DNA from: an uncultured delta proteobacterium
GTDB lineage: Bacteria > Desulfobacterota > Desulfobacteria > Desulfobacterales > SG8-13
Length of the DNA stretch: 64,000 nt
NCBI GenBank assembly: GCA_963787235.1
Contig: CAWBCG010000011.1
Location: 37,561 to 101,560, forward strand
Reading direction: 5' to 3'
Under the pieces are notes generated by a model. That model was not told the DNA's origin and searched no databases. It was given only the letters and a program-made list of their open reading frames with translations. Positions within the stretch are counted from its first letter, which is position 1; each line of letters begins with the position of its first letter. The position numbers and the translations under genes were made by a program. Below, in pieces: positions 21,752 to 39,682 of the stretch.

Positions 21752-21799
21752 ATAAATTTTTCCATTCCCCGCGCATGCGCGGGGAATGGAAAAATTTAT
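21752..21799. terminator. Perfect 48-bp palindrome: bidirectional intrinsic terminator at the 3' end of the pilus locus
   Basis: ATAAATTTTTCCATTCCCCGCGCA|TGCGCGGGGAATGGAAAAATTTAT. GC-rich stem flanked by T/A runs on both strands. Overlaps the stop codon (21796-21798) of the giant pilin gene. Confidence 0.65.
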
Positions 21800-24700
21800 T
21801 GCTGGATCGGAATCGTCGCCCTTTGCTCGGCGAACCCCAGTTTGACGGCGTAGTCTTTGAAGTAGACGTTGGCAGCGCCGTGTCCTGCGACCTGGAGCCC
21901 GATTTCAGGGCGCGTGAAGGGAATGTAAGTTGTGGGCGAGGTCAGGGTGTCGGTGATGATGATGGAATAGCGGCCGTCATAGTCCTGCGCGCGGGTGACG
22001 GAACTGTCGACCACGTCGTTCCACTGAACGAGGGTAAAGTAGTCGTCAAAGCCGTCTGTGGCTTCACCTGCGTCCGGAGGCCAGTTAGCCGTACCGAAGA
22101 GGTTTTTCAAGCGCTCTTGGTCGTAAGGAAACAAGCCGTCGGAGGCCGGGCTGGTCGGCGGCGGATCGACGCCGGTTTCGGCCCCGTAATAGGCCTGGAT
22201 TAAATTTTCACGTGAGGAGTATTCGGTGACGTTGGCTACGGCTGTGTTCCCCTTGTCCAGTGGCAAACCGGAAGAAAAATCGACACCCGAAGTGTTGTTG
22301 AGCAACAGCGTTCCGGCGGCATTTCCGCCGGCCCAGCTGCCGGAAGACAATATCGGGGGAATGCTGACTTTACCGATGGCACCGTTTGATTGCGTCACAA
22401 AATCATCTTTTTCGATGGGCGTTGTCCCGCCGCTGTTGAACGTGACCAAAGCTCCCTCGTTGATCCGCACCAGCAGGGTGGACTGGTTTACCGGGAAATC
22501 CCGGATGACCCGGATGTCGTCGACCCACCAGCCGTTGCTCGTTGCGCAGCAGTTTCTTTCAAACCGGAAACGGATCCTGACGTTGGAATTACCGGCGTAG
22601 CTGCTGATATCGAGTGTCTTTTTCACCCATCCGCCTACCTCGTCCGGTAATGCGTCACTGTTGCCGGTGTAACCGGCGTAACTCGAATCGTTCGGTTCGA
22701 TTCCTCCACACTCCAACGGCAGCCTGTCGTTCAGCAGGTTCCAGTTTGAACCGGCATCTTCCGAAATTTCAACAAATCCCAAGTCTTCACAGGACGCCAA
22801 ACGGTAGCGGGTCCAAAAGGTCAATTGGACCGTCGTTGCTTGAGAGAGATCGATCGGCTCGGAAATCAGATAATCGTTCCAGATTTCTCCCGCCGCCGGA
22901 TCGTTGTAAGCGCCCGAGCCAGAAGGGCTTGTCGTCCAGGAATAACTGCTGGGGCTGCGGGCGAAATTGTCGGCCCGGGTCCAGAGGGGGTCCCCGGCAT
23001 GATCGTTCTCGCTGATCCATTTTCCGGACGGCGGTTCCAATTCAGCACCATCGGAAAAGAGAAGACCGAGTTCACTGTAGGCCAGCCACTTTCGGCTCGT
23101 GCCATTGCCGGTCTGCTGCCAGAGCACAACCAGGTTGACGTCGTTTTCCGGTACGATTTCGTCGGGAATTCTGTCCGCCGGGCTGCAGAATGCGCAACCG
23201 CGCATGAGAGAAAGACCGTAGAAATTTTCGTTTTCGTCCAGGCGAAAGGCGAGGCCGGCGGCATAATGCTTCGGGATGGGCGAGCCTTCAGGCCCGTAGC
23301 CCGTTTCCGGGAAAGGCGTCGAATCAAATCCGATTTTGACCTGGTTGTCGTAGCTCAGATAATAGCCGGCCAGGCGGTGAGAATAGGCGAAGTTGACGAC
23401 CTTGTTGGTGGCCCAGTTGAAGGCGATCAGGCCGGCCTTTAATACCCCGAAGCCGGGTTCGACGTCGGTCACCGCCAGTACATTTTCACCGCCTCTGTTC
23501 TCGATTGCAAAGGAGCCGAAGTTCGGGGAACTCCAATTGCTCAAGTCGTTGAAATCGTCACGAAAGACAATTGTTTCCGTAGATCGGTCGGGGAGTGGCA
23601 CGTTGTAAACCACTTCCCGGGCGGCTGCCAGCTCCCCCTGGCCGACCATCCCGATGGAATAAACCCGGACAAAGGGCTCCAAAACGACTTCCGTCGAGGT
23701 GTCCACTGAAATGCTGAAGGATTCCTCCGGGTCTTGTGCCATCGTGACATTTTCCAGGACGTTGCCCTCGCGGTTAACATAGCCGTATGAGACCCCGTTG
23801 ATATTGATCCGCCCCTGGACCTTAGGGAAAAAACCACCGTCGGCCAACGTCAGGTCCCCGTTTCTCGTCACTGTGGCACTGCCGGTCGGGAGCCCGAGCA
23901 GCTTGACGACGGCGTTGTCGTAAACTGTTTCCTCCAAAGGGGAATCGAGAGTGAGCTGTCCTGTGCTGTCATTGTAAGAGTTGTAGGAATAGACGACATT
24001 ACCAATTTTGACACGGGCGTTGAAACCGTCTGATGGTAGCGTAAAACCCTCCGGAATCCCACCGGAAAATTTGGTTGACAATCCAGTGCTGCCGACGGAG
24101 GCGTTGCCGTTTGCGGTCAAAAAATAGGGAAAAAACTTCAATCGGAATTGACCGTCGTCTCCACCGCCCATGGTAAACAGGTCATCGTGGAGGTCCTCGA
24201 GGATCTGGTTTTTTTCGTCCTGGGATTTGTAGCGGTTGTTGGTGTCGGTGGTGTTGAGATAGCGGCTGGCGGCGTACCGGAAACCGGATTCGGCAATGTA
24301 ATAGGCTCTAACGGCGGTGTTGCCGGTCACCTGGCTGGTGGATGAGGTGCCGATCAGCGACACCATGCCGGCTCCCAGGGCGGCAAATAGCAGCAGAATG
24401 ACCACCAGTCCCACCAGCACATTGCCGCGTTCGTTGCGAAAAGCGTTTCCGGATGAAGAAGACATTTTGGCTTCAGATCTGTGAGAGTATCCGACAGCGG
24501 CCAGGATGGAGCCGATAACAGCAAGGACTATGGCTGTGACCGGCCATTTTTGAAGCAAACAATACAATAAGCGGCTGCTGGAGGCTGCAGTCGACACGAA
24601 ACATTGATACTGGTTGGCGGTGACTGGCTCGGAGGTGGCCGGCGCGCCGCCGAAATTTTCGGTGTTACGCGGATTAATGGTGGTCGAGAAAGGCACAGTA

Positions 24701-25197
24701 CCCGCTTCACCTTCTCGGCCTTCTTTGCGGCGTAGGGCGATATCCATTTTCACAGCAGACATTAGATTGATGCCATCGGCAATAATCCAATCGGGGTTCG
24801 GGCCTTTGAAATACTGAATGGTGAAACTGTCCACCTGGTCGATCAAGGTATCACCGGTGACTCCCGAGAGATTGGTGGCACCGGCAGTCAGGCTGTAGAG
24901 CCGTATCGTGCTGCCCACTTTGGCGATGGCCTGTCGTCCCAAGAGGCGGTTGTCAAATACAACCCAAGGATCGGCGCCGTCGTCGCGGGAAATGACATCG
25001 GTCAGCTCCATCAATTCGCGATTGATGCGTGTCAGGGCGATCTGGGCCTTCTGGGCCAGGTGGCCGTTTTCCTTGGCCTGCATGTAACCCCGCAGACCGG
25101 TGACGATTCCCATTCCGGCAATAGCGCCCAGGATTCCGACGATTACAAGCGATGCGATCACCTCGACCAGAGTAAAACCGGCGCAATGCCTCTTCAT
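21796..25197 (-). CDS. Giant prepilin-type minor pilin: MshO/PilW-like N-terminus fused in frame to a PilX/MshP-like segment and a large MshQ-like adhesin region
   Basis: ATG 25197 with AGGAG 7 nt upstream. Class III signal MKRHCAG|FTLVEV. The first module ends with FSTTINPRN. A second N-terminal-like hydrophobic segment NERGNVLVGLVVILLLFAALGAGMV follows the internal ATG at 24465. The C-terminal part has a beta-sandwich pattern (IDLS...LTFW...VEIS.D.G.NW...VRIRF...GWWVDDIRV). The ORF track extends to 25332. Confidence 0.8.
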   Translation of the reverse strand: MKRHCAGFTLVEVIASLVIVGILGAIAGMGIVTGLRGYMQAKENGHLAQKAQIALTRINRELMELTDVISRDDGADPWVVFDNRLLGRQAIAKVGSTIRLYSLTAGATNLSGVTGDTLIDQVDSFTIQYFKGPNPDWIIADGINLMSAVKMDIALRRKEGREGEAGTVPFSTTINPRNTENFGGAPATSEPVTANQYQCFVSTAASSSRLLYCLLQKWPVTAIVLAVIGSILAAVGYSHRSEAKMSSSSGNAFRNERGNVLVGLVVILLLFAALGAGMVSLIGTSSTSQVTGNTAVRAYYIAESGFRYAASRYLNTTDTNNRYKSQDEKNQILEDLHDDLFTMGGGDDGQFRLKFFPYFLTANGNASVGSTGLSTKFSGGIPEGFTLPSDGFNARVKIGNVVYSYNSYNDSTGQLTLDSPLEETVYDNAVVKLLGLPTGSATVTRNGDLTLADGGFFPKVQGRININGVSYGYVNREGNVLENVTMAQDPEESFSISVDTSTEVVLEPFVRVYSIGMVGQGELAAAREVVYNVPLPDRSTETIVFRDDFNDLSNWSSPNFGSFAIENRGGENVLAVTDVEPGFGVLKAGLIAFNWATNKVVNFAYSHRLAGYYLSYDNQVKIGFDSTPFPETGYGPEGSPIPKHYAAGLAFRLDENENFYGLSLMRGCAFCSPADRIPDEIVPENDVNLVVLWQQTGNGTSRKWLAYSELGLLFSDGAELEPPSGKWISENDHAGDPLWTRADNFARSPSSYSWTTSPSGSGAYNDPAAGEIWNDYLISEPIDLSQATTVQLTFWTRYRLASCEDLGFVEISEDAGSNWNLLNDRLPLECGGIEPNDSSYAGYTGNSDALPDEVGGWVKKTLDISSYAGNSNVRIRFRFERNCCATSNGWWVDDIRVIRDFPVNQSTLLVRINEGALVTFNSGGTTPIEKDDFVTQSNGAIGKVSIPPILSSGSWAGGNAAGTLLLNNTSGVDFSSGLPLDKGNTAVANVTEYSSRENLIQAYYGAETGVDPPPTSPASDGLFPYDQERLKNLFGTANWPPDAGEATDGFDDYFTLVQWNDVVDSSVTRAQDYDGRYSIIITDTLTSPTTYIPFTRPEIGLQVAGHGAANVYFKDYAVKLGFAEQRATIPIQQ

Positions 25198-25288
25198 AAA
25201 CCGACTCCTGAGAGGGTGCGGGCGATAAGGAATGGTTTCTCCAAAAATTTCAGTATAGGTTTCATCAACTCTGAGAAGCCCAGCCTCC

Positions 25289-25720
25289 TTATCTTGTGTA
25301 TAGGGTCGTGATCTCGTGTTGGCCTCTGACAACGGTTACTTTTAAAACCCGGTGGTAAAAAGGGCTGAGGGGGTCATTGTCCTGAGCCTCGTTTCCGCTG
25401 CCGTCAAACGTAATCCAGGACGTGCTCCAGGTGTAATCACCATAGTTGCCGGTGTTGTTTTCTATGTCACTTTTTAAATCAACTAAGGGATTTTCAGATT
25501 GAGCCAGTTGTTTCTTGTAGTCGGCAGTCATCTTCTCGACGATTGCTGTCAGTTGCATGCTCCCCTGAGCCATTTTTATAGGCACGAAGCTCTTGTGGAC
25601 GGTCTGGCCCAGGAATTCGAGCAGGATGGCCCCCAGGATCGAGCCCACGATCAGGGCAATGATCACCTCGAGCAGGGTGAAGCCGCTCGATTTGCCTTTT
25701 AAAATTCCTGCCGGTTTCAT
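25289..25720 (-). CDS. Prepilin-type minor pilin (MshD/PilV/GspI-like)
   Basis: N-terminal KGKSSG|FTLLEVIIALIVGSIL methylation motif. 143 aa. Start overlaps the upstream stop (ATGA). Confidence 0.8.
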   Translation of the reverse strand: MKPAGILKGKSSGFTLLEVIIALIVGSILGAILLEFLGQTVHKSFVPIKMAQGSMQLTAIVEKMTADYKKQLAQSENPLVDLKSDIENNTGNYGDYTWSTSWITFDGSGNEAQDNDPLSPFYHRVLKVTVVRGQHEITTLYTR

Positions 25721-26202
25721 TCGATAAATCCCGTGTTTTTCGTGATTGTGATCGCGTAATTATCCGACCCTTTAGAGAGGGTCACAGTCCGATTCTCTGT
25801 TATAGGTGCGCCGGGAGGTGTGCCGGAATAGAGCGCGTAATAGGGGATGCCGCGGTCATCGAACGAATACGTGCCGGCCGTTATGCTCATGCCCTCTGCG
25901 GCCAGGTCGACCGTGTTCGCGTTTTCTCCCGGCAGCTTGATGGTCGTGAGGGTGGTGGTAGCGGTGTCATACCTGAAGAGCCAATAACTGCCGCCGGTGC
26001 TGTTGGTCTGTATACCCCAGGGCATATTGTCGTTCATGGCCCGGGCCTGAGCGTGACGCAGCTGGCTCTTCAGGACCTCGGTTTGAACTTTAAGGTCCGC
26101 GCTGGTGACGCGGCCGCGACCGATGGCAAAGGCCACGATGATGCTCATCACGATCAGAACGACCACAATTTCTATAATAGTGAAGCCCGCGTTTTTTTTC
26201 AT
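25717..26202 (-). CDS. Prepilin-type minor pilin (MshC/FimT/GspH-like)
   Basis: MKKNAG|FTIIEIVVVLIVMSII motif. 161 aa. Confidence 0.8.
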   Translation of the reverse strand: MKKNAGFTIIEIVVVLIVMSIIVAFAIGRGRVTSADLKVQTEVLKSQLRHAQARAMNDNMPWGIQTNSTGGSYWLFRYDTATTTLTTIKLPGENANTVDLAAEGMSITAGTYSFDDRGIPYYALYSGTPPGAPITENRTVTLSKGSDNYAITITKNTGFIE

Positions 26203-26379
26203 TTTCGATATTCTGGCGGTAATCGATGAAATTCGAACAAAGCGAGCACGAAGTCAACATACGGCTTCCTTTAGATAATACACTGCCGGTTGACTTCATG
26301 TAAAGAGGCGGGAGAAAGTGTGACGGTAAAAAGGTGAATTCAAACTGGCAGGAACCGGCAGACTCATCTTAATCCTTTA

Positions 26380-26787
26380 TTACGTTTCGGACTTGCGCCA
26401 TTTTGCAGCAACCTGCAGCGTGGACGCTTCCCGGATAAGCGAAATGGTCTGGCTGCCGAAGGAGAGTTGCCCCCCCGTGTCTTTATCCGGTCCGTTGTCC
26501 CAGTGGTAGCTGGAACCGATGTCGGTGTAGGTGGAGGCGGTCATCATCGCCCAGATGGCTTCGTCGCCGGGGTACTTGCCCTGGTTTATGATCAGGTTGG
26601 CCCAGGTCAGGGTTTCCCTGGAGTTTAACTCACTTATTCCGGCCTCGATAGCGCGCAGCTCAGCAGAAATGTTGATATTGTTGTATTTTTTGACGACGAC
26701 GGACGCCATGACACCGATGATAACCAGCATGGCCATCAGTTCGATCAGCGTAAATCCCTTTTCTTCCGATACGTCTATCAGTCTCAT
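26380..26787 (-). CDS. Type IV pilin, paralog 1 (candidate major subunit)
   Basis: Leader ...EEKG|FTLIELMAMLVIIGV. GGGGA RBS. Shares AIEAGI.ELN..E.L.WAN and C-terminal Y.W..GP..GG.L.F blocks with the two upstream paralogs. No Cys. Confidence 0.8.
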   Translation of the reverse strand: MRLIDVSEEKGFTLIELMAMLVIIGVMASVVVKKYNNINISAELRAIEAGISELNSRETLTWANLIINQGKYPGDEAIWAMMTASTYTDIGSSYHWDNGPDKDTGGQLSFGSQTISLIREASTLQVAAKWRKSET

Positions 26788-26851
26788 TCATGTCCCCACT
26801 CCAGATCAGCAGAAAGCATCAATAGTATGCCACACCAGTGCAGTCCAAGTA

Positions 26852-27229
26852 TTATTTTCTTGACCACCTAGCCGGTTTGTCGGATTCAGAAGGATCTCGC
26901 AACAACTCAGCCTCAGCTGAAGATTGAAACGTTAATGTTCCCCCGCCGGCATTCGGTCCAACTGTCCAACTATAGTCAGGGCCCAGGTCCGGATTAATTA
27001 CAGAAAAAACCTGGGTATCATCTTGCCAGCCATTGGGTGCCAGTTTGGCATTGGCCCAGACCAGGCTCTCCTGACCGTTCAATTCGCCAATACCTGCTTC
27101 GATGCCGTGCTCTTTGGCATGTATATCCAGGTTGATAAACTTTGGAACTGCTATCGCCGCCAGCACACTAAGGATAATCAGAACTGATATAATTTCGACT
27201 AATGTGAAACCTTTCTGGTTTATAAGCAT
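26852..27229 (-). CDS. Type IV pilin, paralog 2
   Basis: MLINQKG|FTLVEIISVLIILSVLAAIAVP. The start is taken at the ATG giving a 7-aa leader; the ORF track extends to 27268. No Cys. Confidence 0.75.
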   Translation of the reverse strand: MLINQKGFTLVEIISVLIILSVLAAIAVPKFINLDIHAKEHGIEAGIGELNGQESLVWANAKLAPNGWQDDTQVFSVINPDLGPDYSWTVGPNAGGGTLTFQSSAEAELLRDPSESDKPARWSRK

Positions 27230-27400
27230 GCGACGGTACATTATTTCGAGCAGGTTTTCTTTACCCAACTGATATGCGACAAATTAATTAAACTAATTAA
27301 TTCGTGCAACTGCAATAACGATGCATGCCAAAAGTGCACTAAATCAGGTTGGGTTTTGACAGTCATATTCACTCGGTCGCTGGTCAGTCGGGAAACATGT

Positions 27401-27829
27401 CTATGATCCGGTGAGGGACCAATTACCTGGACTGGTAAGGGTTGCGGCTTGCCGAGTAAGGGTAACACCTGTACCGTTTTTAAAGCTAAGGGTTCCACCA
27501 CCAGCACCGGGACCTGCGGTCCAGACATAGTCCGTGCCGAGATTCGGTACTGTACCTGATTATCGGATCAGTTAAAATTGTAGAGTCCATGTCTGCGTCC
27601 GTTACCCGGCGGGTCAGGGCTGATTTTTATATTGGCCCATGCGAGATTTTCCCGGCCGTTCAATTCGGAATACCGCGGCATCGATGGCGCGCCTCTTGGC
27701 ATTCTCTTCGAGGTTGATGTAGCGCGGGACGGCAACCGCAGCCAGGATACCCAAAATAATCAGAACGGCGATAATTTCGACCAGCGTAAAACCCTCTTCG
27801 TTGGTCAATTGCTTTTTTAACGACATCAT
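27401..27829 (-). pseudogene. Type IV pilin paralog 3, disrupted by frameshifts
   Basis: The intact N-terminus (MMSLKKQLTNEEG|FTLVEIIAVLIILGILAAVAVPRYINLEENAKRRAIDAAV) runs into a stop at 27614. The conserved continuation SELNGRENLAWANIKISP is in another frame. The conserved C-terminus (TVPNLGTDYVWTAGPGAGGGTLSFKNGTGVTLTRQAATLTSPGNWSLTGS*, stop 27401-27403) is back in the first frame. Confidence 0.7.
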
Positions 27830-28007
27830 AAAACGCTCCTTTTTGGCTCGATGATTCTGAAATTCCCCTAATCCTTGTTGGACGGGGGATTATTAGAAGT
27901 ATCCAGCATGTCGAAAAACCTTAAATATAAAGTCCTTGGAAAGACGCTTCTTTATCTCCCTAACGTTTTACAAGACGCTTTAGGACTCAAATGCACTGCA
28001 AATGTAA

Positions 28008-28023
28008 TGCAGATAGCATGCCA
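28008..28023 (-). promoter_or_regulatory. Sigma-54 (-24/-12) promoter candidate upstream of the pilin genes
   Basis: The minus strand reads CTGGCATGCTATCTGCA (TGGCAT-N5-CTGC) with canonical GG/GC spacing, about 180 nt upstream of the first pilin start (27829) and just downstream of the sigma-54 activator gene. Confidence 0.55.
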
Positions 28024-28166
28024 GATTGTGATGAAAGCGAAAAGTTATTTTTTATGAACAGATCACGAACAATTTAAAATGGTTATGCGTTTGTCGGGGT
28101 CGCCATCTTTTTTCGGGTTGACGTCTTGGAAGTATAAATCTACATAATTTGTAGGCAAATTCGTCG

Positions 28167-29537
28167 TTATTTTCCATTTTTGATGCTTTTTACATCGATG
28201 TCGTGTTTCTTGATTCGGTGCCAGAGACTGCGTTGATTGATTCCCAGCAGTTCGGTAGCGCGTACCTGCACCCCATCGGTTTTGCGAAGGGCCTCTATAA
28301 TCAGGTTTTTTTCAATCTCTGCCAGGCGATCGTCCAACGACATGTCAGGCGGGAAAATCGGCGTGGGTGTGTTTGAGGAATCGCTTTTTTCGAAGCCGCT
28401 CGCGATGGGGGCGGGGAGGTGGCCCGGTTCGATATTGCCGTCTTCACAGATGACAGAGGCCCTCTCGATCACGTTCTGCAGTTCCCGCACGTTTCCGGGC
28501 CAGGAATAGGCCATCAGCAATTGAAGCGCCGCAGACGTGATACCGACCTCTCCGGTGGTTTTGCCAAGGAAATGTTCCACCAGCGCCGGAATGTCCTCAC
28601 GTCGTTCGCGCAACGGCGGCAGGTGGAGGGTGAACACGTTGAGCCGGTAATACAGGTCTTCTCGAAAGTGACCTTCTTTGACCATTGTCTCGAGGTTCTT
28701 ATTGGTGGAGGCGATGAAGCGCACATTGACTTTGATGGTCTTGCTCCCACCGACCCGGTAGAATTCACGTTCCTGAATGATTCTTAGGATTTTTGACTGT
28801 AAGTTGAGCGGCATATCGCCGATTTCATCCAGGAAGATGGTGCCGCCGTTGGCCATGTCGAACTTACCCGGCTTAAAGGCGGTGGCCCCGGTGAAGGCCC
28901 CTTTCTCGTGACCGAACAATTCGCTCTCCAAGAGTTCCTCCGGGATGGCGGCACAATTGAGCTTGATGAACGGTTTGTCTTTTCGCAGACCCTGATCGTA
29001 AATGCTGGTGGCGACCAATTCCTTGCCGGTTCCACTTTCACCGAGAATCAGCACGGTCGAGTCAGTGGGAGACACCTTCATGATCAAGCTCATCAACGCG
29101 CGCATCGGCAGGCTTTCACCGATGATCTTCGGGAAAAAACTGCGCGATTCCAATCGGCTCAAGACGCTGGTGACCTGGTCGAACACATAGGTAAATTGCT
29201 GGATCTGGTCGCCGGAATCTTTGGATGGCGCTGTCGGGTCGCTCTCTTCAAGCGGCGTGAATTGGCGCGCATTTTCAACAAAACGTTCCACCGGTTTCAG
29301 AATCAACCGCACTAGAAGAACCCCTGACGCAAAGGCCGCTATGGCGATCAGGGCGATTGCCCAAAAAATCGGGCTGATTGTTGTCCCCGTTTTGGGTCCA
29401 AAGGGATATTGGGTGAGGTTAAAGGCGACAAGGGCCGCCAGCACTGTGAATCCCATGATGATAAAAGGGATAATAACGTAAAGGCTGATGTGAAAGCGCG
29501 GCAGATTCCTGATTTCTTTCAGGTACCTTTTCATCAT
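28167..29537 (-). CDS. Sigma-54-dependent transcriptional activator with an N-terminal two-TM membrane anchor and no receiver domain
   Basis: Two hydrophobic helices (ISLYVIIPFIIMGFTVLAALVAF; IFWAIALIAIAAFASGVLLV). AAA+ core with GESGTGKE, intact GAFTGA, RED..YRL. C-terminal Fis-type HTH (ATELLGINQRSLWHRIKK). Confidence 0.9.
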   Translation of the reverse strand: MMKRYLKEIRNLPRFHISLYVIIPFIIMGFTVLAALVAFNLTQYPFGPKTGTTISPIFWAIALIAIAAFASGVLLVRLILKPVERFVENARQFTPLEESDPTAPSKDSGDQIQQFTYVFDQVTSVLSRLESRSFFPKIIGESLPMRALMSLIMKVSPTDSTVLILGESGTGKELVATSIYDQGLRKDKPFIKLNCAAIPEELLESELFGHEKGAFTGATAFKPGKFDMANGGTIFLDEIGDMPLNLQSKILRIIQEREFYRVGGSKTIKVNVRFIASTNKNLETMVKEGHFREDLYYRLNVFTLHLPPLRERREDIPALVEHFLGKTTGEVGITSAALQLLMAYSWPGNVRELQNVIERASVICEDGNIEPGHLPAPIASGFEKSDSSNTPTPIFPPDMSLDDRLAEIEKNLIIEALRKTDGVQVRATELLGINQRSLWHRIKKHDIDVKSIKNGK

Positions 29538-29546
29538 TTTGCTTTA

Positions 29547-29685
29547 GTTTATTCAGAAATGTGCAATTTTTCGCAAGTTCAAGGAAATTGACTGTATTGC
29601 GCGGAGGCGTACTTTTGTACGCCGCACAAGCGATTCAGCCGATTGACGCCGAAATTGCGGAAAAGGGCCATTTATGGATGGAAAC
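29547..29685 (-). repeat. MITE-like repeat family 1, copy A (one terminus degenerate)
   Basis: Aligns along its length with copies at 32963-33103 and 46129-46270. Its last base is the first base of the platform-gene stop codon complement (29685-29687). Confidence 0.8.
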
Positions 29686-30902: not shown

Positions 30903-31035
30903 TTGTTCCTCTATGGCCGTGGCGGCGGTCCCTTCCGTCAGCAGCCAGAAATTAGCGGTGGCAATAAGAATACAATAGATTACGCCGGGCAACCGGATTT
31001 TATGGGTTTACCGAGAACCACTATTCGGCAGCCCG

Positions 31036-32811: not shown

Positions 32812-32962
32812 AATCTTTTTGACAAACTCCTCATTTGCACCCGTGTTCCTGGATGCTTCGATTCGCGAACGCGAAATCGTATTTAGAAGAATAAAAATTG
32901 ATCGGCTGCTCAGTCAGCAATTAGCTTGTGCCCATCCACGGTTTTTTTGAGGGCACTGGTAA

Positions 32963-33103
32963 GTTTCCGATCCAGAAATGTGCCATTTTCTGCAAGTTCA
33001 AGGAAATCAAAGAATTGCGCGGAGGCATACTACTGTATGCCGCACAAGCGATTCCGCCGATTGACGCCGAAATTGCGGAAAAGGGCCATTTATGGACGGA
33101 AAC
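32963..33103 (-). repeat. MITE-like repeat family 1, copy B (full length, 141 nt)
   Basis: Termini GTTTCCGATCCA...TGGACGGAAAC. Central hairpin GGCATAC-TACT-GTATGCC. Lies between the ExeA-like and mshE genes. Confidence 0.85.
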
Positions 33104-33110
33104 GAGCTTG

Positions 33111-34817
33111 TCAACCATTGGTGCGACGGTGTTGATGTCCAAAAAACGGGTCTCTGTAAAAGACCGTTTCAGGCGACCAGATCGATACGATTCGGCTCTC
33201 CTGTGAGAGGGCCGTCGGCAGATGTTCTAATGTAATCCGGGCCGTCAAGGGGTCGAAAAAAAAACGGTTTAACAACAGGTCGAACTGGATGCCGGTTCGC
33301 GGGGTCCAGTAAGAGACGATCCTGACCTGGCGGGCATTGCCGGTCAAGGAGCGTAATAAAACATAGGCGTCTTCGAGACTCCGGCGGTGCGCGACACTGA
33401 TCCACCACACGGGATCGGCAAGAGGACGGACATCCGCCGGAATAGCCGGTATCCGCACCATCTGGCCCACCTGAACCAGGTTGGGATCGGTAATGAGCGG
33501 GTTGGCGAGCAACAGGGATTCAAAGAGCGCGGAACTGACATCGCCGTAGATGGTTTCTATCAACCCGTAAAGATTTTCGTTGGGCATGATGGTGATCTGT
33601 CCGAGTTCATGGGGCGTTTCGAGCTGTGGCGGGTTTGTGACTGTCGCAGGCCCCGCCGATTGTAAACTGGCGGCCAGATCGGCAGTAACCGGAGCAGTGC
33701 CCCCGGACACGGGCTGCACAGCTGGGGCTGCAGGTGGTGATACAGGGGGTGCAGGGGGCGCTGGTAAGTCGGTTGCAGCGGAATGCGGCATCATGGGCGC
33801 AGGTAGCGGTTCCGGCATGACGTCGATTTTGCGATAGCTGACCGTTGAACGACTGGACTGCGGGTCGGTCAACGAGGAGTCGGTTTGAGCCGATAATCGC
33901 AGGTGTCGAATGTCGATTGCCGCGATACCGATCGCCAAAAACAGGAGTGGGATGCCAACGGACAGAGCCAGACGTTTGATGCGTCGGCTACGGTGTGGAA
34001 ATACACGCCGGATGCAGGTCCGGGCCAGAAAGAGATCAACCGATGGTCGACTCTGAATGATCATCGTCAGGATGCATCGGTGGCACAGATTGATGATTTT
34101 ACGGGGGTATCCCCTCGAAGCCACGTAGATGGCGATCAGTGCCGGCAGGCTGAAATACGTGTAGGCTTTGTAATTCGTGCTCGATTTCTCGAGCCGGAAG
34201 CGGATCATGGCGCGGGTATCGCCGAAACTCATCGGTTTCAAATGGTGATACAAATTGATCCGGTCGGCAAAATTGGCATAGTGGTCGATCGTGTTTTGAA
34301 ATTCCGTTTGGGCGAATATGACGATCTGCAGCAATTTGTATTCATTGGTCTCGTAGTTCAAGAACTCCCGCAGCAGTTCCAGACAAAACGCCGGCAATTT
34401 CTGACCCTCGTCGATGATGAGAACGACTGTCTTTTTTTCATCCACGCCGCGCTTAAAGAGATGGTTTTTGACCACTTCCTTCATCTGCCAGTCCCGGGCC
34501 TCTTCCGGTGGCCGCCGGCCGGTCAGCATTTCAATGATCGTCACTAAAAATTCCGCGGTGCTCGAAAAGCCGGGATCCAGAACGAGGTGGGTTTCAAATT
34601 CATTGGTCTTGGTAAACCGACGGATCAACTGGCGGCAAAGGGTGGTCTTGCCGGTGCCGACATCGCCGATGATGACGTTCAGACCGCGGCGCAACCGCAG
34701 GGCGAGTTCTAACTTTTGCAGGCATTCGAGATGCTGTTGGGAACCGTAGAAAAATTCAGGATCCGGCGAGTTGGAAAACGGTTCCTTGTCGAGGTTGACG
34801 ATGCTGAAATATTCCAT
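33111..34817 (-). CDS. ExeA/GspA/MshM-like AAA ATPase with TM segment, Pro/Ala-rich linker and C-terminal peptidoglycan-binding-like region
   Basis: N-terminal FSNSPDPEFFYGSQQH...IIGDVGTGKTTLCRQL (ExeA-type Walker A). TM LALSVGIPLLFLAIGIAAI. LysM-like NENLYGLIETIYG...VQVGQMVRIP. Further C-terminal beta-rich domain. Confidence 0.85.
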   Translation of the reverse strand: MEYFSIVNLDKEPFSNSPDPEFFYGSQQHLECLQKLELALRLRRGLNVIIGDVGTGKTTLCRQLIRRFTKTNEFETHLVLDPGFSSTAEFLVTIIEMLTGRRPPEEARDWQMKEVVKNHLFKRGVDEKKTVVLIIDEGQKLPAFCLELLREFLNYETNEYKLLQIVIFAQTEFQNTIDHYANFADRINLYHHLKPMSFGDTRAMIRFRLEKSSTNYKAYTYFSLPALIAIYVASRGYPRKIINLCHRCILTMIIQSRPSVDLFLARTCIRRVFPHRSRRIKRLALSVGIPLLFLAIGIAAIDIRHLRLSAQTDSSLTDPQSSRSTVSYRKIDVMPEPLPAPMMPHSAATDLPAPPAPPVSPPAAPAVQPVSGGTAPVTADLAASLQSAGPATVTNPPQLETPHELGQITIMPNENLYGLIETIYGDVSSALFESLLLANPLITDPNLVQVGQMVRIPAIPADVRPLADPVWWISVAHRRSLEDAYVLLRSLTGNARQVRIVSYWTPRTGIQFDLLLNRFFFDPLTARITLEHLPTALSQESRIVSIWSPETVFYRDPFFGHQHRRTNG

Positions 34818-34928
34818 GGTGGCCGGTGGGTGGTGCCAAAAACAAAATTAGAATACCATCAAGGAGCGCAAAAAGATGAACAGATTATGCTTCGAAACCC
34901 TTCATTAAACTTTTAGGTTGGGACGGCT

Positions 34929-36509
34929 TCACTGTGTGGGGTAAGGCGCAATGGAAGAAGACGTGGCCGTGCCTGCCGCTTTTTCTTCCAGTATGTAAGG
35001 CGTGATGAAAATAAGCACATCTTCCATAGCGCCGCTGCGGGACCGACTACCGAAAAGCCATCCAAGCCCTGGTACGTCTTTCAGATACGGGATTCCGGCC
35101 TGGTTGGAGGCCGTTGTCTCTTTATTCAAGCCACCGATGACCGTTGTCTGCCCATTCAACAGGATGACGTTGGTCTCGGCTTTTTTTGTAATGATGGTGG
35201 GGTTGCCGGCAACCGGCCGGGAAAAATCGGGTTCGTCCTTGTTGGTGAGAATCTTTAATTTCAAAGCGTCCTCATCGATGACATTCGGAGTGACTTCCAG
35301 TCGAAGAGTTGCCTGAACATATTCGATATTGACCTCTCCGTTTTCCACGGTCTGAATCGGGATCCTGCTGCCGGACTCTATCAGGGCGATTTGGTTCTCC
35401 AGGGTTGTGATCGAGGGACTCGAGAGAATGTTGAGCCGACCTTCATTCTGCAGGGCCTGCAGCTGCAGGGAAAGGGCGCTTCGGCCGACATTTTGGAACA
35501 GGAAACCCAGCGACAAACCGATGTTGTCCTGGAGGTTTATCGGGAAATTGGAAATATTTCCCAAAGGCCATAGATATTCGATCGGGTCGCCGTTTTCGTC
35601 TTTGATTGACCTTCTGTCCTCGAAATTGACGCTGTCGGGCCCCACCCAGATGTTGTTGTCGTTCGAGGTGCCGTAGAACAGCCCCCCCCACTGCACACCG
35701 AGAGCTCTGGCCGTGTCGTTGCTGGTCTCAACAATGTAGGCCTGGATCAAAATCTGGGCGATCGGGCGGTCGATCTGGTCCACCACGGCCAGCATGCGGC
35801 GCAGGTCACTGGGAATGGCCTGGATGATCAGGGAGTTGGTGTGTTCGTCAACCAGCACCGACCCCAAAGGCTTGCCTTCCCTGTCGAGCGACAGGAACTG
35901 CTGCATGTTTTCCCGTAGCGTGGCCGCGCTGGCATAGCTGATTTTGACTACTTCGGTCGTCAGCGGCTCGGCCTTATCGAGCTCATTTCTTTGTTCTTCA
36001 CGCTTCAGCTCGGTCTCCATGTCCTGCACCGTCATGACACGGATGATGTCCCCCTCCCAGGCATAGGTCAGCCCCTGGGTGCGCAGTATGCTTTTAAAAA
36101 CCTGATCCCAGGGAGCTTCCGTGATATTGATGTTGATCTTGCCCGTGACCTTATCGTTGAGCATGATATTCTGATTGGCAATCCGGGCCAGGGCTCGCAA
36201 CAAAACCGGAACGTCGATGTCGTTCATTTTCATGGTGATTTTACGGGACGGCAGCGGCTTTTCCGGGGGCGGTTTCAAAACATCGGGTTTGGCGGCTGCG
36301 CCTCCATGGTCGCCGGCCATCGATTCCCGTCCGTGTTTTTTGGGCGATGGAGAATACGCCTGGGAATCGGCCACCCTGGCTTTCCATTCCTCGAAAATGC
36401 CCTTCTCAGACGGAGGCGGAGGCGTTGTGCAGCCAATAATAAGGGCGGTCACCAGCAAGAAGCTGACCAGACGCACCAAGAATTGAACGGTTCTGTCGTA
36501 GGATGCCAT
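34929..36509 (-). CDS. Secretin (PilQ/MshL/GspD family), lipoprotein-type signal
   Basis: Lipobox LIIGC. N-domain repeats. Secretin C-domain blocks (VLVDEHTNSLII, TTVIGGL, GIPYLKDVPGLGWLFG, LIFITPYI). Confidence 0.9.
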   Translation of the reverse strand: MASYDRTVQFLVRLVSFLLVTALIIGCTTPPPPSEKGIFEEWKARVADSQAYSPSPKKHGRESMAGDHGGAAAKPDVLKPPPEKPLPSRKITMKMNDIDVPVLLRALARIANQNIMLNDKVTGKININITEAPWDQVFKSILRTQGLTYAWEGDIIRVMTVQDMETELKREEQRNELDKAEPLTTEVVKISYASAATLRENMQQFLSLDREGKPLGSVLVDEHTNSLIIQAIPSDLRRMLAVVDQIDRPIAQILIQAYIVETSNDTARALGVQWGGLFYGTSNDNNIWVGPDSVNFEDRRSIKDENGDPIEYLWPLGNISNFPINLQDNIGLSLGFLFQNVGRSALSLQLQALQNEGRLNILSSPSITTLENQIALIESGSRIPIQTVENGEVNIEYVQATLRLEVTPNVIDEDALKLKILTNKDEPDFSRPVAGNPTIITKKAETNVILLNGQTTVIGGLNKETTASNQAGIPYLKDVPGLGWLFGSRSRSGAMEDVLIFITPYILEEKAAGTATSSSIAPYPTQ

Positions 36510-36523
36510 TTTCCCCTGCTGCT

Positions 36524-37039
36524 CTATTGCATTTCTTCCAATTTGACGGTGATCTTCTTTTTTTTGCCTTGCATGCCCACAACCACCCTGTTCGGGTGGA
36601 TCTCCTCGACGATATGGGCGCCGTCCGGCAGTTTTTCGCCTTTTTCGTATTCGATGCCGTTGATGATGGCGAGATTTCGGTTACCCATGTTTAAAAAACC
36701 CGAATAGACGATGCCAAGCTCCTGGGCGGTTGCACCCTTTTTAACCTCGTCCAGTTTTTCCTTTTCCGGTTTGAACGCGACTTCTTTTCTGGTGTTCAAG
36801 AGAGGATCTTTGGTCCATTTGACCGGGATTTTATCGATGATGTAGGTTTCCTCTTCCGAAACGCCCCCCTTGACCAGTGTGGCGACATTCGTGATGAATT
36901 TATTGAATGTGTCCAGCTTGTTTCCGGAGGCGGCCAGTTTCGGTTTGCCCGGTGACGGGTTTTCAAGAAACAGGGCATAGAAACCGTAAACGATCGTCAG
37001 CGCCATTATGATCAGAATAACTTTTTCCCGCTTGGACAT
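36524..37039 (-). CDS. PilP/MshK-like pilus assembly protein
   Basis: Single N-terminal TM. C-terminal YSGFLNMGNRNLAIINGIEYEKGEKL...IVEEIHPNRVVV pattern typical of PilP/GspC-like HR domains. Start uncertain (37039 or 37087). Confidence 0.55.
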   Translation of the reverse strand: MSKREKVILIIMALTIVYGFYALFLENPSPGKPKLAASGNKLDTFNKFITNVATLVKGGVSEEETYIIDKIPVKWTKDPLLNTRKEVAFKPEKEKLDEVKKGATAQELGIVYSGFLNMGNRNLAIINGIEYEKGEKLPDGAHIVEEIHPNRVVVGMQGKKKKITVKLEEMQ

Positions 37040-37251
37040 TTTCGGGGCCTTAAGGGATGTACGGCCGTGATCCGGAGCTGTGATCAATCAGTCGGTGCCC
37101 GCAAGGCCCGACGCTGAAAGAAGGGCTCCAGTCGTAAAACCGCATGAATTGTATTATCATATCACTATTCAACCATCAAATTAAGAGAAGATTTCTGGAT
37201 CGAAAACCGACCAGTGCCATCATAAATAAATTCGTGGCTGGACATGACCTG

Positions 37252-37788
37252 TCACTCACGGGCCAGCAGCAACCGCAGCCGGAACTCTTTCGTGTCGCTG
37301 GCCGACTTGATCGTAATTTCCTCTATCTTATCAAGATACGGCAGCCGGCAGATCTGGAGCAGGAACGGCTGCAAATTAAAAAAGTCTCCCTTCAACAGCA
37401 TGCTGACTTTCAGGGTGCCGGTCTCACCGATCATCGATTGGATTTCCGGTGAATATTCAGCCAGCTGAAGTTTGCTTTCCCTGGCCATCTCTTGAAAAGT
37501 CCGTCCAACTTTGTCGGTTTCGTCCCGCTTCAGTTTCTCCGCCGGAACGACATTCAGTCCCGCGGGGGGCTTCATCTGTGTTTTCTTTAAAAGGCTCTCG
37601 TAGAGCGGCGTCAGGATCTGTTCCTCTTTGATCCGTCCACTGATCTCATCGATCCGTCTATCGAGCGCTTCGGAATCTCTTTGCGCCGGTAAAATGGCCA
37701 ACAGCACGAAAAGGATGATGCCGCCGCCGAAAATGATCACATTCAATAGGCTCTTAGTGGGAACCGATGTCAGGTTAATTTTGGCCAT
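37252..37788 (-). CDS. PilO/MshJ-like pilus assembly protein
   Basis: N-terminal TM, coiled-coil segment, C-terminal ferredoxin-like region. Position between the PilM/N fusion and the PilP-like gene. Confidence 0.65.
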   Translation of the reverse strand: MAKINLTSVPTKSLLNVIIFGGGIILFVLLAILPAQRDSEALDRRIDEISGRIKEEQILTPLYESLLKKTQMKPPAGLNVVPAEKLKRDETDKVGRTFQEMARESKLQLAEYSPEIQSMIGETGTLKVSMLLKGDFFNLQPFLLQICRLPYLDKIEEITIKSASDTKEFRLRLLLARE

Positions 37789-37795
37789 AGCGATT

Positions 37796-39682
37796 TTAAA
37801 CGAGCTTGAGCTGCGCCGTAAACCGCAGCACTTCCTTGTCGTTGAAAAAACCGGGTTCCTTCTGGTTGATCACCGGTTGTTTGAACAGGGGAGATCCGCT
37901 AAGCTGGATCAAGTAACCGGCCAGGGCCGATTCGAAAGCCGTTCGGTCGCCGAGAACAATGCCTTCCAAAATCACGTTTTTCTGCGGGGGTTCTTTGCCG
38001 CCGGCCTTGTCAGAAAAACGGACCGAAATGCTGGTCAGGCGAATGTTGGTGGGCGTCAAATTCGATATTTCCGTCAGGGCGACAACGCTCAAGTATTTTC
38101 GGCTGAATTCCAGAAATTCCTGGTTTTTGCTTTTCGCCTGTTCGACCAGATTGAGAATCAGTTTTTGGTCCACAGGGACCCTGTAATTGCTCAGTTGGTT
38201 CTGCAGATGCTTGATGTCGGCTTTTTTCTCTTCGATCAGACGATTCTGCCAGCTGTAAAATCCGACACAGATCGCCAACAGAACGAGAGCGGCGATGGCC
38301 GTAATTTTGTTGAGCAATTTGGTTCGAGCGGCTTTGGCTTTTTCCTTGTAGGTATATAGAAAATTCGGTGTTTGTGTCTTGGTGGAAAGCGCCATACCGA
38401 TTGCCGGTGCATATGATCCTCTTTCGGCTTCTGACAACGGCGCCTCGACCTCACCCAGATATTCGGGAGTCGTGACGAACGGATCGAAGGTTTCCCGCGG
38501 CAGTCCGAGTTCGTCCCCGATGTAATCGACAATGCGGCGATGGGGGCGGACGGTGCTGGAGATGTAGAGCTTTTCCACACGTTCATTGTCGAAGTTGGCG
38601 GCATAGTGATCGAAAGTCCGCTCCACCTGCTGACCCAGGCGTTTGAGTGCCGGCAGGATCATTCGGAAGATTTCCTCTTCTTCCGGTTGCAGGGCGGAAG
38701 ATTCATCGGCTTTCGGGGAAACGTCGTACAGCAGTCCGAAAAAAATCTTTTGTGCTTTTTCAGGGTCGAATTTCGGTTGGCCGGGTCTTTGATCTTGTGG
38801 TTTGTCCTCGGCCGAGGCCATCATTTCCGGTATAATCTCGATCGAGCCTTCGAAATCATTTTCGATGATCTCCCCGCGCATCGCCTCGTTCATAGTTTTT
38901 ATACCGGCTTTTATGCCGCGGGAAAGCACGAGACTGCCACCTGAAAAAATGTCGATACGCGACCAGTCGCGCCCGATGTATAGGCTTGAGATCGTCTTGA
39001 CTTTTGAATTGACCCAGCCGGTGCGCAATAGATTTTGAAAGGCGAAGGGCACGATGGAAACACCCGTCAGAGGAAATCCGCTTTTCGAAAACAGGTTCTT
39101 GTGGAACTGGATTTCCTTTTCCGGAGCGGTAAATGAGACCGCTGCATATTTCGGTGTTCCGTCGTCGAGAATTTCACCCAGTATCTCGAAATCGAAGATT
39201 ACCTCGCCTTCTTTGTAGGGAGCGACCTTTTTATGGGACCAGTAGACCGCATTGTCCAGTTGTTTCTGGGCAACTTTCGGTATCTTCAGGTACCGCAGTT
39301 CGACTCGTGCAGATGAAATACAGCTCCAGAACTCCAGGTTTTTGGATGACCCGCAAAAGCGGCCCAGGTTCTTTCGCAGGAATTTGGCAAAGTCGGGATG
39401 CCCGGGATGCAGGTCGGGCTCGAAGGGCACTCGGAGGTAATCGATCAATTCGTGCTTTTGATGCGAGGCGTTGTTGACTTTAACCAATTTCAGATCGTCG
39501 TAGCCGATATCGACCCCGACGGTGGTCGCTTTTTTGAAGGATACGCTGTTTTTCAGACCGCTGCCGATGCGCGTGGAGATCGATGGGGGGGGCGGTGTTT
39601 CGATCCTATCCGGTGCGTCACCTTGGTTGCGAATCAAGTCCAGAAGTTTCTCGGTCGAGGAAATTTCGTCCTTCTTGGCCAA
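37796..39682 (-). CDS. PilM-PilN fusion (MshI-like) pilus assembly protein
   Basis: Actin-like ATPase fold start TVGVDIGYDDLKLVKV. PilM-type blocks. Then a TM helix (ITAIAALVLLAICVGFYSW) and a PilN-like coiled coil plus C-terminal domain. Confidence 0.8.
   Translation of the reverse strand: MAKKDEISSTEKLLDLIRNQGDAPDRIETPPPPSISTRIGSGLKNSVSFKKATTVGVDIGYDDLKLVKVNNASHQKHELIDYLRVPFEPDLHPGHPDFAKFLRKNLGRFCGSSKNLEFWSCISSARVELRYLKIPKVAQKQLDNAVYWSHKKVAPYKEGEVIFDFEILGEILDDGTPKYAAVSFTAPEKEIQFHKNLFSKSGFPLTGVSIVPFAFQNLLRTGWVNSKVKTISSLYIGRDWSRIDIFSGGSLVLSRGIKAGIKTMNEAMRGEIIENDFEGSIEIIPEMMASAEDKPQDQRPGQPKFDPEKAQKIFFGLLYDVSPKADESSALQPEEEEIFRMILPALKRLGQQVERTFDHYAANFDNERVEKLYISSTVRPHRRIVDYIGDELGLPRETFDPFVTTPEYLGEVEAPLSEAERGSYAPAIGMALSTKTQTPNFLYTYKEKAKAARTKLLNKITAIAALVLLAICVGFYSWQNRLIEEKKADIKHLQNQLSNYRVPVDQKLILNLVEQAKSKNQEFLEFSRKYLSVVALTEISNLTPTNIRLTSISVRFSDKAGGKEPPQKNVILEGIVLGDRTAFESALAGYLIQLSGSPLFKQPVINQKEPGFFNDKEVLRFTAQLKLV

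Follow-up and report, generated by a model that had tools for sequence, protein, structure and literature searches.

A predicted single-locus type IV pilus system of the Desulfobacterales with an MSH-like gene order

Introduction

Is a filament locus that is organised like the mannose-sensitive haemagglutinin (MSH, or MSHA) pilus, but sits in a lineage from which no such pilus has been reported, a diverged MSH system, a different machine, or a decaying remnant? This question is raised by a locus of about 18 kb in an uncultured delta proteobacterium (Desulfobacterales, SG8-13), found in a stretch of 64,000 nucleotides (assembly GCA_963787235.1, contig CAWBCG010000011.1, positions 37,561 to 101,560) that is referred to here as the window. 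A sequence-only reading of the window had described the locus as an MSHA-type type IV pilus system with a non-canonical parts list, and as a poorly described filament variant. We have followed up this description with profile searches, comparison to related loci and structure prediction. We consider it likely that a complete type IV pilus machine is encoded in this single locus, and that it represents a Desulfobacterales-specific family with an MSH-like organisation, in the branch that holds the type IVa pili (T4aP), the MSH pili and the type II secretion systems (T2SS). From its gene content it appears to be an uncharacterised variant of a known machine and not one that is new in kind.

Results and Discussion

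Gene content and distribution of the locus

According to the list of open reading frames (ORFs) and to profile searches of the whole window, 13 minus-strand ORFs fill positions 21796-39682. Domains were called with Pfam and NCBIfam profiles, using their curated cutoffs; pairwise comparisons to msh proteins were made with phmmer, and remote comparisons with hhalign. Transcription would pass through a PilM/N fusion, a PilO-like protein, a small protein (p187) with a homology-region (HR) type domain, a lipoprotein secretin, an ExeA/MshM-like ATPase, an MshEN-type ATPase and a platform protein, and then through a sigma-54 activator, three pilin genes of which one is frameshifted, two minor pilins and a giant protein of 1133 amino acids (aa). 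The coordinates and gene calls of the sequence-only reading all hold. The features are, in this order:

37796..39682, minus strand: PilM/PilN-type fusion, 628 aa (PilM_2 35 bits; TIGR01175 E=3e-16, residues 50-432)
37252..37788, minus strand: PilO-like bitopic protein, 178 aa (Pfam PilO 16.8 bits, below cutoff)
36524..37087, minus strand: p187, small bitopic protein with a C-terminal HR-type domain, GspB/ExeB-like (T2SSB 22 bits, cutoff 28.4)
34929..36509, minus strand: outer-membrane secretin, 526 aa, predicted lipoprotein (Secretin 149 bits, Secretin_N, GspD N0)
33111..34817, minus strand: ExeA/GspA/MshM-like AAA ATPase, 568 aa (AAA_22 70.8 bits)
31036..32811, minus strand: extension ATPase, 591 aa, with N-terminal MshEN cyclic di-GMP (c-di-GMP)-binding domain (T2SSE 453 bits; MshEN 57 bits)
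29685..30992, minus strand: inner-membrane platform protein of the GspF/PilC/MshG family (T2SSF 185 bits)
28167..29537, minus strand: membrane-anchored sigma-54 enhancer-binding protein, 456 aa (Sigma54_activat 242 bits; HTH_8 44 bits)
28008..28023, minus strand: predicted sigma-54 (-24/-12) promoter TGGCATGCTATCTGCA, a strict TGGCAY-N5-YTGCW match about 180 nt upstream of the first pilin gene
27401..27829, minus strand: first pilin gene, with about three frameshifts (read directly in three frames)
26852..27268, minus strand: second pilin gene, no cysteine (N_methyl 29 bits)
26380..26787, minus strand: third pilin gene, 135 aa, no cysteine (N_methyl 23 bits)
25717..26202, minus strand: GspH/FimU-like minor pilin, 161 aa (N_methyl; GspH 21.8 bits, cutoff 21; TIGR01708 E=1e-10)
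25289..25720, minus strand: minor pilin, 143 aa (N_methyl 29.6 bits), conserved as "m2" in related loci
21796..25197, minus strand: giant minor pilin of 1133 aa, counted from the ATG at 25197 (ORF 21796-25332; N_methyl, InhA-like_MAM)

A survey of synteny in related genomes had been proposed together with the original description. The order MN-O-P-Q-A-E-G-R-pilins-m1-m2-BIG is kept in about 45 long loci from distinct Desulfobacterales species, one carrier being the isolate Desulfosarcina alkanivorans PL12, at about 1.01-1.03 Mb of NZ_AP021874.1. The parts list is therefore no peculiarity of the window, since its parts are conserved traits of a large Desulfobacterales family. Homologues of the PilM/N fusion number more than 1195, essentially all labelled Desulfobacterales, Deltaproteobacteria or Thermodesulfobacteriota, and a scan of species-representative genomes gave 301 relatives of the extension ATPase, the best 80 of which are all from the Desulfobacterales and include one isolate. 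The locus of a sister strain (L001, GCA_049590035.1) is 99.1% identical to the window over 13.4 kb of machinery genes. That the system is poorly described was borne out: literature searches found no paper on the locus, and those on Desulfosarcina pili found nothing specific. Scans of the sequence for sigma-70 promoters and terminators gave counts not above the shuffled expectation.

Relationship to known filament and secretion machines

The MSH class has been defined by mshA, mshE, mshG and mshL together with mshM, and has been reported only in the Gamma- and Epsilonproteobacteria and the Chrysiogenetes, with none in the Deltaproteobacteria (Denise et al. 2019, PMC6668835); the supplements of that study do not name the Desulfobacterales genera that carry the present locus. 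We used the msh loci of Aeromonas caviae (L005) and Legionella adelaidensis (L086, in which mshL is annotated) as references. The gene order does mirror the Vibrio and Shewanella msh order, as had been claimed, being collinear with it and having an ExeA/MshM-like ATPase gene between the genes for the secretin and the MshEN-ATPase. No prepilin peptidase (Peptidase_A24) and no PilT were found in the 64-kb window. Their absence had been counted among the differences from MSHA, but a locus without them is the norm for MSH (PMC6668835). Neither profile searches nor phmmer detected a homologue of MshN, a tetratricopeptide repeat (TPR) protein, or of MshF in the locus, as the first description had stated.

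At the level of individual proteins the likeness to MSH is uneven. The secretin fails the MshL equivalog model (TIGR02519 pilus_MshL, 94.7 bits, cutoff 250.2) and passes that of the PilQ subfamily (TIGR02515, 323 bits, cutoff 284); it scores 41-55 bits against the Aeromonas and Legionella MshL proteins in phmmer. The PilM/N fusion, the PilO-like protein and p187 gave no phmmer match to MshI, MshJ or MshK of either reference, no ORF of the window matched MshN, F, D, P or Q, and the pilins match MshA in the N-terminal helix only (25-41 bits). Apart from a weak match to MshO (see below), the accessory set of MshI/J/K, MshN, MshF and MshO/P/Q was not recovered by phmmer. The ExeA-like ATPase scores 115-120 bits against the two MshM proteins and the platform protein 240 bits against Aeromonas MshG. 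The extension ATPase scores 447 bits against Legionella MshE (41% identity) and 410 bits against Aeromonas MshE (39%), 461-467 bits against Geobacter PilB and about 395-399 bits against GspE. Among its listed near-full-length matches, the two highest-ranked gammaproteobacterial records inspected (H2 and H7) are MshE proteins within msh loci. In a bootstrapped neighbour-joining tree the Desulfobacterales ATPases form a clade with 100% support, separate from PilB (99%), MshE (100%) and GspE (60%); the tip labelled OlaviusDelta1like_E in this tree is the PilM/N ORF of locus L004 and is to be disregarded. We conclude that the system is organised like an MSH pilus and would work like one, and that its membership of the MSH class, which the label "MSHA-type" had implied, is not established: the MshL model is failed and the PilQ model passed, no phmmer similarity to MshI, MshJ or MshK was seen, and the ATPase clade stands apart.

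Against the curated models for type IVa pili, the PilQ cutoff is passed as described, and the proteins stay below the cutoffs for PilB (588 bits, cutoff 676) and PilM (59 bits, cutoff 133). The equivalog models of the T2SS are all missed, namely GspD (230 bits, cutoff 351), GspE (584, cutoff 630) and GspF (354, cutoff 424), and Pfam and NCBIfam profiles found no GspC, GspL or GspM in the locus.

The locus shares with the MSHA systems of Vibrio cholerae, Aeromonas and Shewanella its confinement to a single collinear locus, the very large last protein, the MshEN c-di-GMP motifs of the ATPase and the lack of prepilin peptidase and PilT genes. Unlike them, it lacks MshN and MshF, has a secretin that is PilQ-like by profile, shows no phmmer similarity to MshI/J/K/P/Q, and has an ATPase of a distinct clade. 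Its MshM homologue is twice as long and has both a transmembrane (TM) segment and a periplasmic tail, the pilins are preceded by an inserted sigma-54 activator gene and sigma-54 promoter, and the last protein fuses two pilin modules. In the PilS-PilR-controlled T4aP of Pseudomonas, Myxococcus and Geobacter we find the same combination of a sigma-54 promoter for the major pilin with an adjacent activator of the NtrC family, as well as a PilM/N/O-type alignment complex and a PilQ-subfamily secretin, and the ATPase of the locus is about as near to Geobacter PilB as to MshE. However, the activator differs from PilR in having no receiver domain or partner kinase and in being anchored by two TM helices. 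Other differences from T4aP are the fusion of PilM with PilN, the lack of AMIN domains in the secretin, the presence of an ExeA-like ATPase, the grouping of all genes in one locus, and scores below the curated PilB and PilM cutoffs. The third likeness is to ExeA-ExeB (GspA-GspB) of the Aeromonas and Vibrio T2SS, in which a small bitopic partner with a T2SSB-type C-terminal domain likewise accompanies an AAA_22 ATPase that has a TM segment and ends in a periplasmic domain; both genes flank the secretin gene. Here, in contrast, the pair sits with a pilus machine and not with a T2SS, the periplasmic domain of the ATPase is not PF01471 and is at best (putatively) LysM-like, and the T2SSB match of p187 is below the Pfam threshold.

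Motor, alignment complex and secretin

The extension ATPase matches the c-di-GMP motif model NF053729 with 62 bits (cutoff 38), and inspection of the sequence shows both of its 24-residue c-di-GMP motifs, RLGEILIEGGLLTRSQLEEALPYQ and KLGQFLVREGIVSEVQIVEMVSNQ. The platform gene probably starts near 30902, giving a protein of about 405 aa, the orthologues having 405-406 aa; its best profile is GspF or PilC. Two kinds of additional ATPase genes were seen in other loci and not in the window. One is a shorter ATPase-like ORF (367-424 aa) 3' of the giant gene in L052, L055, L059, L063, L072 and L081, and the other is an extra T2SSE-family ATPase of 712-719 aa upstream of the PilM/N gene in L040 and L070.

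In the PilM/N fusion, a single TM segment separates an actin-like PilM domain in the cytoplasm from a C-terminal tail of about 150 aa in the periplasm, and hhalign gave a weak collinear match to a Legionella MshI1-like protein (E=0.0019). The PilO-like gene has the same position in about 45 loci; hhalign found no usable match of the PilO-like protein and the PilN-like part to Legionella MshJ and MshI2. The next gene, p187, is an ORF of 187 aa for which Met17 is the likely start, giving 171 aa, and it occupies the place where PilP or MshK would be expected. It had been labelled PilP-like, a label that has to be softened after comparison with its orthologues: 17 of 26 match T2SSB, the GspB family, and none of the 26 matches PilP. 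The C-terminus of p187 gave a weak hhalign alignment to Legionella MshK (E=0.004), and by its sequence and position the protein could possibly double as a PilP/MshK equivalent.

The secretin is made up of N0, a single N1 and the secretin domain, and Pfam found no AMIN domain in it. Its lipobox reads IIGC, and a lipobox-like motif is present in 41 of 55 orthologues. In the ExeA-like ATPase, AAA_22 takes up residues 1-260; a TM segment and a linker rich in Pro and Ala connect it to about 160 aa of periplasmic C-terminal region, which 26 orthologues conserve as two blocks, one putatively LysM-like and the other a second alpha/beta module. This region had been described as a long peptidoglycan-binding-like extension of an MshM homologue. 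The extension is real, but its peptidoglycan binding is drawn from weak LysM-clan matches: Phage_tail_X is matched by 4 of 26 orthologues (best E=1e-4), and LysM itself only weakly (E=0.014). Profile searches found no PG_binding_1 (PF01471), OmpA or SPOR match in the tail, and hhalign against single LysM (MltD) and SPOR (FtsN) sequences gave probabilities below 1%. An AF2 model of the tail reached a predicted local distance difference test (pLDDT) score of 39, too low to be of use, from a 5-sequence alignment, the homologue search with this short query having given 4 proteins.

The genes for p187 and the ExeA-like ATPase flank the secretin gene. Because T2SSB is matched by 17 of the 26 p187 orthologues and PilP by none, and because of this flanking arrangement, an ExeAB-like role in secretin assembly is our best inference for the pair, by analogy with the T2SS.

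The window also encodes a second ExeA-like protein of 515 aa, within 43475-46281, in which AAA_22 is combined with a C-terminal OmpA peptidoglycan-binding domain. It scores 136-146 bits against MshM, above the copy in the pilus locus (115-120 bits), and its gene is followed by a 359-aa ORF without a Pfam match and then by a full inverted copy of a hairpin repeat (see below).

Regulation of the pilin genes

The sequence-only reading had placed a membrane-anchored sigma-54 activator between the platform gene and the pilins, and both profiles and hydrophobicity agree with this. Two N-terminal TM helices are followed by a linker, an AAA+ domain in which the GAFTGA motif is readable, and HTH_8; no receiver, GAF or PAS domain was found, and residues 1-145 have no Pfam match at all. 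In all 53 of 53 orthologues, two hydrophobic segments lie in the first ~100 residues, ahead of Walker A and the AAA+ domain, and the gene lies between the platform and pilin genes in almost all related loci.

The candidate promoter at 28008-28023 is the only strict TGGCAY-N5-YTGCW match in 64 kb, where 0.18 would be expected by chance. In 34 of 59 related loci the first pilin gene is preceded, at a distance of 53-203 nt, by a -24/-12 motif with at most two mismatches, against a background of about 0.02 expected per locus, and TGGCAT-N5-xTGCT was seen in 9 of 18 loci that were re-inspected, 16 of these 18 being from the remaining 25. Two loci of Desulfosudis oleivorans (L069 and L070) have no activator gene; L070 has no promoter motif and L069 a poor match. 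That sigma-54 and PilR control pilin genes is well established for T4aP, and such control is found in sulfate reducers as well (PMC4641369). A membrane-anchored activator without a receiver domain was not found in pilin control in the literature searched. By analogy with PilS, a possible role for the membrane anchor could be to sense the pool of pilins in the membrane.

Elsewhere in the window, the region 46916-48666 encodes a sigma-54 activator of 350 aa without a sensory domain, and a -24/-12-like motif (TGGCATGAAAGATGCA) at 48230-48245 overlaps the start of a 141-aa ORF without a family match.

Pilins and strain variation

In the first pilin gene the leader and the N-terminal helix are intact, and about three changes of frame are then needed to reach the C-terminus. 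The second is likely to start at 27241, giving the leader MYRRMLINQKG|FTLVE, and the third has 94.8% nucleotide identity to L001. It is exactly at the pilin region that L001 diverges from the window: it has two pilin genes in place of three, the first encoding an intact protein of 147 aa with two cysteines, the second pilin gene of the window is missing, and the C-terminal halves of the pilins cannot be aligned between the two strains. The pilin had been described as triplicated and cysteine-free with one decayed copy. This is correct for the window but does not extend to L001, and because the pilin region of L001 differs in this way, triplication, absence of cysteine and decay are traits of the window strain. 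Across related species the number of pilin genes ranges from one to three.

Since the machinery is 99.1% identical between the two strains while the pilin C-termini are unalignable and the copy number differs, the pattern is what would be expected of a surface-exposed filament under diversifying selection. Such variability, as read from the sequences, fits a surface-exposed subunit better than a periplasmic pseudopilin.

The giant bimodular protein

The product of the last gene opens with a pilin module that is GspJ/MshO-like, which leads through a truncated CFI-box and a TM hairpin to a second, GspK/PilX-like pilin helix and then to tandem jelly-roll domains resembling MAM domains and carbohydrate-binding modules (CBM). 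There are 109 homologues. Since full-length versions (1040-1200 aa, including DSCA_09150 of Desulfosarcina alkanivorans) are kept down to about 30% identity, the ORF is judged from its sequence relatives to be a genuine fusion and not a read-through artefact. Other species have a split version made up of two genes, of about 190-245 aa and about 860-935 aa. The proposal that the equivalents of MshO, MshP and MshQ form one ORF was right as to the single ORF; phmmer found no homology to MshP or MshQ, and only the N-module resembles MshO, weakly and at its N-terminus (18-26 bits).

The N-module ends in a conserved GGAPxTxxPxTAxQYxCF(V/I)xTAA, followed by a hydrophobic stretch. CFI-box-CTERM (NF041770) is a C-terminal domain of 69 residues that opens with CF(I/V)xTAAYG. 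Two homologues, P0154 and P0186, contain the full domain in an internal position (76 and 72 bits, cutoff 40). The hidden Markov model of this family does not match the giant protein of the window, in which QYQCFVSTAA and a TM segment remain, and literature searches on the CFI-box found nothing specific. After the CFI-box region come a basic loop and ERG|NVLVGLVV. The glycine, residue 258, is invariant in 60 homologues, and where the gene is split it equals the Gly(-1) of an ordinary prepilin-type leader.

Structure prediction, which had been proposed as a check, gave an AlphaFold model from a 60-sequence alignment with a mean pLDDT of 77. It has pilin-type helices at residues 10-62 and 260-314 with a helical hairpin between them, and beta-sandwich domains that span about 800 residues. 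When the PDB was searched with Foldseek, reelin repeats, CBM22, meprin/InhA MAM domains, the gingipain K1 adhesin and Eph ligand-binding domains ranked highest; all of these are jelly-roll binding modules, and none is a PilY1-type propeller. On the most economical reading, the giant protein would be an adhesin at the pilus tip, borne by a GspK/PilX-like minor pilin to which the GspJ-like partner is covalently joined. The topology would allow prepilin peptidase to cut the protein internally.

In modular type IV pilins a pilin module is grafted to a functional domain, as in PilB and PilC of Streptococcus sanguinis. The giant protein resembles these, and the GspK/PilX tip pilins, in that bulky domains of the adhesin type, probably exposed at the tip, are attached to a pilin helix. 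It is unlike the modular pilins in having two pilin modules in one polypeptide, with a CFI-box-like segment and a TM hairpin between them, and in that the second module has a conserved Gly(-1) cleavage-type motif of its own.

Proposed function and alternative explanations

If the locus encodes a complete pilus machine as we consider likely, then the MshEN-ATPase, probably switched on by c-di-GMP, would drive the platform protein to extrude pilins, and the PilM/N fusion, the PilO-like protein and the GspB/PilP-like HR-domain protein would couple this motor to the lipoprotein secretin. The ExeA-like ATPase, through its periplasmic tail and together with the GspB-like protein, may help the secretin to assemble through the cell wall, as ExeAB does for ExeD. 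Transcription of the pilins would be driven from the sigma-54 promoter and activated by the adjacent receiver-less, two-TM enhancer-binding protein, which may sense an intramembrane cue, for example the pilins that await assembly. Together with the giant bimodular pilin, the two small minor pilins could prime assembly and put the tandem jelly-roll adhesin domains at the tip, and prepilin peptidase and any retraction ATPase would be supplied from elsewhere in the genome, as in MSH systems. Several points weigh against parts of this model. The identities of the PilO- and PilP-type components are weak, being taken from position and sub-threshold matches, and peptidoglycan binding by the ExeA-like tail is weakly supported. 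The placement of the ATPase clade is weakly supported, the deep nodes of the neighbour-joining tree having bootstrap values of 2-46%. The first pilin gene, which lies behind the only canonical sigma-54 promoter, is frameshifted in the window, and the second and third are preceded by degenerate promoter-like sequences only. The cue that the activator would sense is pure inference.

Other explanations are less probable. It is conceivable, though doubtful, that the locus represents a distinct pilus class with two unprecedented features, a one-protein substitute for PilS-PilR and a two-pilin "polyprotein" tip complex. If so, the two-TM receiver-less activator could respond to the pilin pool of the inner membrane, or to some other cue within the membrane, by switching on the pilin promoter directly, and the two minor pilins, joined by the CFI-box and TM hairpin, could be cut by prepilin peptidase at Gly258 (ERG|NVLVGL), a residue that the predicted three-TM topology would place on the cytoplasmic face. 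We regard it as unlikely that the locus truly belongs to the MSH clade, as an orthologue of the Vibrio and Aeromonas msh loci that has lost MshN and MshF and diverged in sequence. The collinear order, the MshM homologue at a syntenic position, the MshEN motif, the confinement to one locus in which, as in all MSH loci, prepilin peptidase is missing (PMC6668835), and the two inspected gammaproteobacterial ATPase records that proved to be MshE within msh loci would all be accounted for. Such membership is, however, hard to reconcile with a secretin that fails the MshL equivalog (94.7 against 250.2 bits) and passes the PilQ model, with the lack of detectable similarity to MshI, J, K, N, F, D, P and Q, with an ATPase that stays apart from MshE in the neighbour-joining tree and whose score against Geobacter PilB equals or exceeds that against MshE, with sigma-54 control resembling that of PilR-type T4aP, or with the failure of Denise et al. 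to report MSH from the Deltaproteobacteria (PMC6668835).

A T2SS-like secretion machine with a short periplasmic pseudopilus, perhaps exporting the giant protein or some other cargo, is very unlikely in our view, although Gsp-type profiles are the best for the platform protein (GspF, 354 bits) and for the pilins (GspH and GspG), p187 is related to T2SSB, the ATPase is ExeA-like and a homologue of the giant protein is annotated as "GspJ". An alignment complex of the PilM/N/O type takes the place of GspC, GspL and GspM, the GspD, GspE and GspF cutoffs are all missed, and the multi-copy pilin genes, hypervariable between near-identical strains, are unlike conserved pseudopilins; the giant adhesin-like minor pilin also fits a structure displayed at a tip. 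Least probable of all is that the locus is decaying or silent in the window strain, with a frameshifted lead pilin and mobile hairpin elements between its operon genes. The roughly three frameshifts behind the only canonical sigma-54 promoter, the three repeat insertions inside the locus and a second split gene elsewhere in the window (BBP2_2), which suggests pseudogenes or assembly indels, could be read in this way. Yet none of the other twelve ORFs is truncated, and they share 99% identity with a strain that has an intact lead pilin. Related species carry the repeats too, at other intergenic sites of loci that are intact, and the frameshifts, which are limited to a region that varies between strains in a metagenome assembly, may be artefacts of the assembly.

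Hairpin repeats and neighbouring genes

The three repeat elements within the locus are:

29551..29685, no strand assigned: hairpin repeat copy of about 140 nt, resembling miniature inverted-repeat transposable elements (MITE) or repetitive extragenic palindromes (REP), folding at -41 to -56 kcal/mol and abutting the platform stop codon
32952..33103, no strand assigned: second full copy, folding at -55 to -61 kcal/mol and abutting the stop codon of the ExeA-like gene
37191..37226, no strand assigned: inverted fragment of 36 nt between the PilO-like and p187 genes

The two full copies are about 89% identical and fold as long imperfect hairpins. Two MITE-like repeats inside the locus had been noted from the start and both are real, but the repeat is also found outside it, as a third full copy in inverted orientation (46129-46281) and as a further fragment (54315-54404). 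An Rfam scan of the whole window returned two tRNAs only and no family for the repeats. The repeat lies between the ATPase and platform genes in L013 (11683-11846) and L015 (11722-11866), and between the platform and activator genes in L008 (13443-13508) and L010 (13361-13505). These differing sites in related loci indicate independent insertions, and on such comparisons the repeat behaves as a lineage-specific, dispersed MITE/REP-like element and not as a component of the pilus. TGGCAC-like strings in the third repeat were considered as a possible sigma-54 promoter and rejected, since the spacing is wrong and the scans gave no match.

On the plus strand at 40176-42137, divergent from the PilM/N gene, lies a gene for a hybrid kinase (PAS-HisKA-HATPase-REC). 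A kinase-like gene is found beside PilM/N in 23 of 45 related loci, and is clearly orthologous in close relatives only. The region 49040-64000 holds two hybrid histidine kinases, a truncated activator-like ORF (54650-55549) and an exopolysaccharide-type cluster with a GNVR chain-length protein, an AAA_31 kinase-like protein, a sugar transferase and a UDP-GlcNAc 2-epimerase. The BBP2_2 porin of this cluster is split (61329-62123 and 62149-62721), as either a pseudogene or an assembly indel. On the other side of the pilus locus, an AbiEi/AbiEii type IV toxin-antitoxin pair (13198-15052, minus strand) directly follows a tRNA at 12631-12714; the patch has a GC content of 0.44 against about 0.53 and looks like a small integrated island.

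Conclusions

For the study of type IV filaments, the locus is a natural intermediate that mixes an MSH organisation, sigma-54 regulation of the T4aP type and an ExeA/GspB module of the T2SS type, and this intermediate character bears both on how such machines have diversified and on how annotation pipelines should classify them. Two features stand out as the most interesting leads, the sigma-54 activator with its membrane anchor and the giant pilin, fused or split, with its internal CFI-box and conserved Gly(-1) site. Natural controls exist for both, in Desulfosudis oleivorans, which has no activator, and in relatives in which the giant gene is split. Members of the Desulfobacterales such as Desulfosarcina, Desulfosudis and their relatives are key sulfate reducers and syntrophic partners in sediments, and their means of attachment are poorly known. 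A pilus with a giant lectin-like tip protein would be a concrete candidate for their attachment to surfaces and to partner cells.

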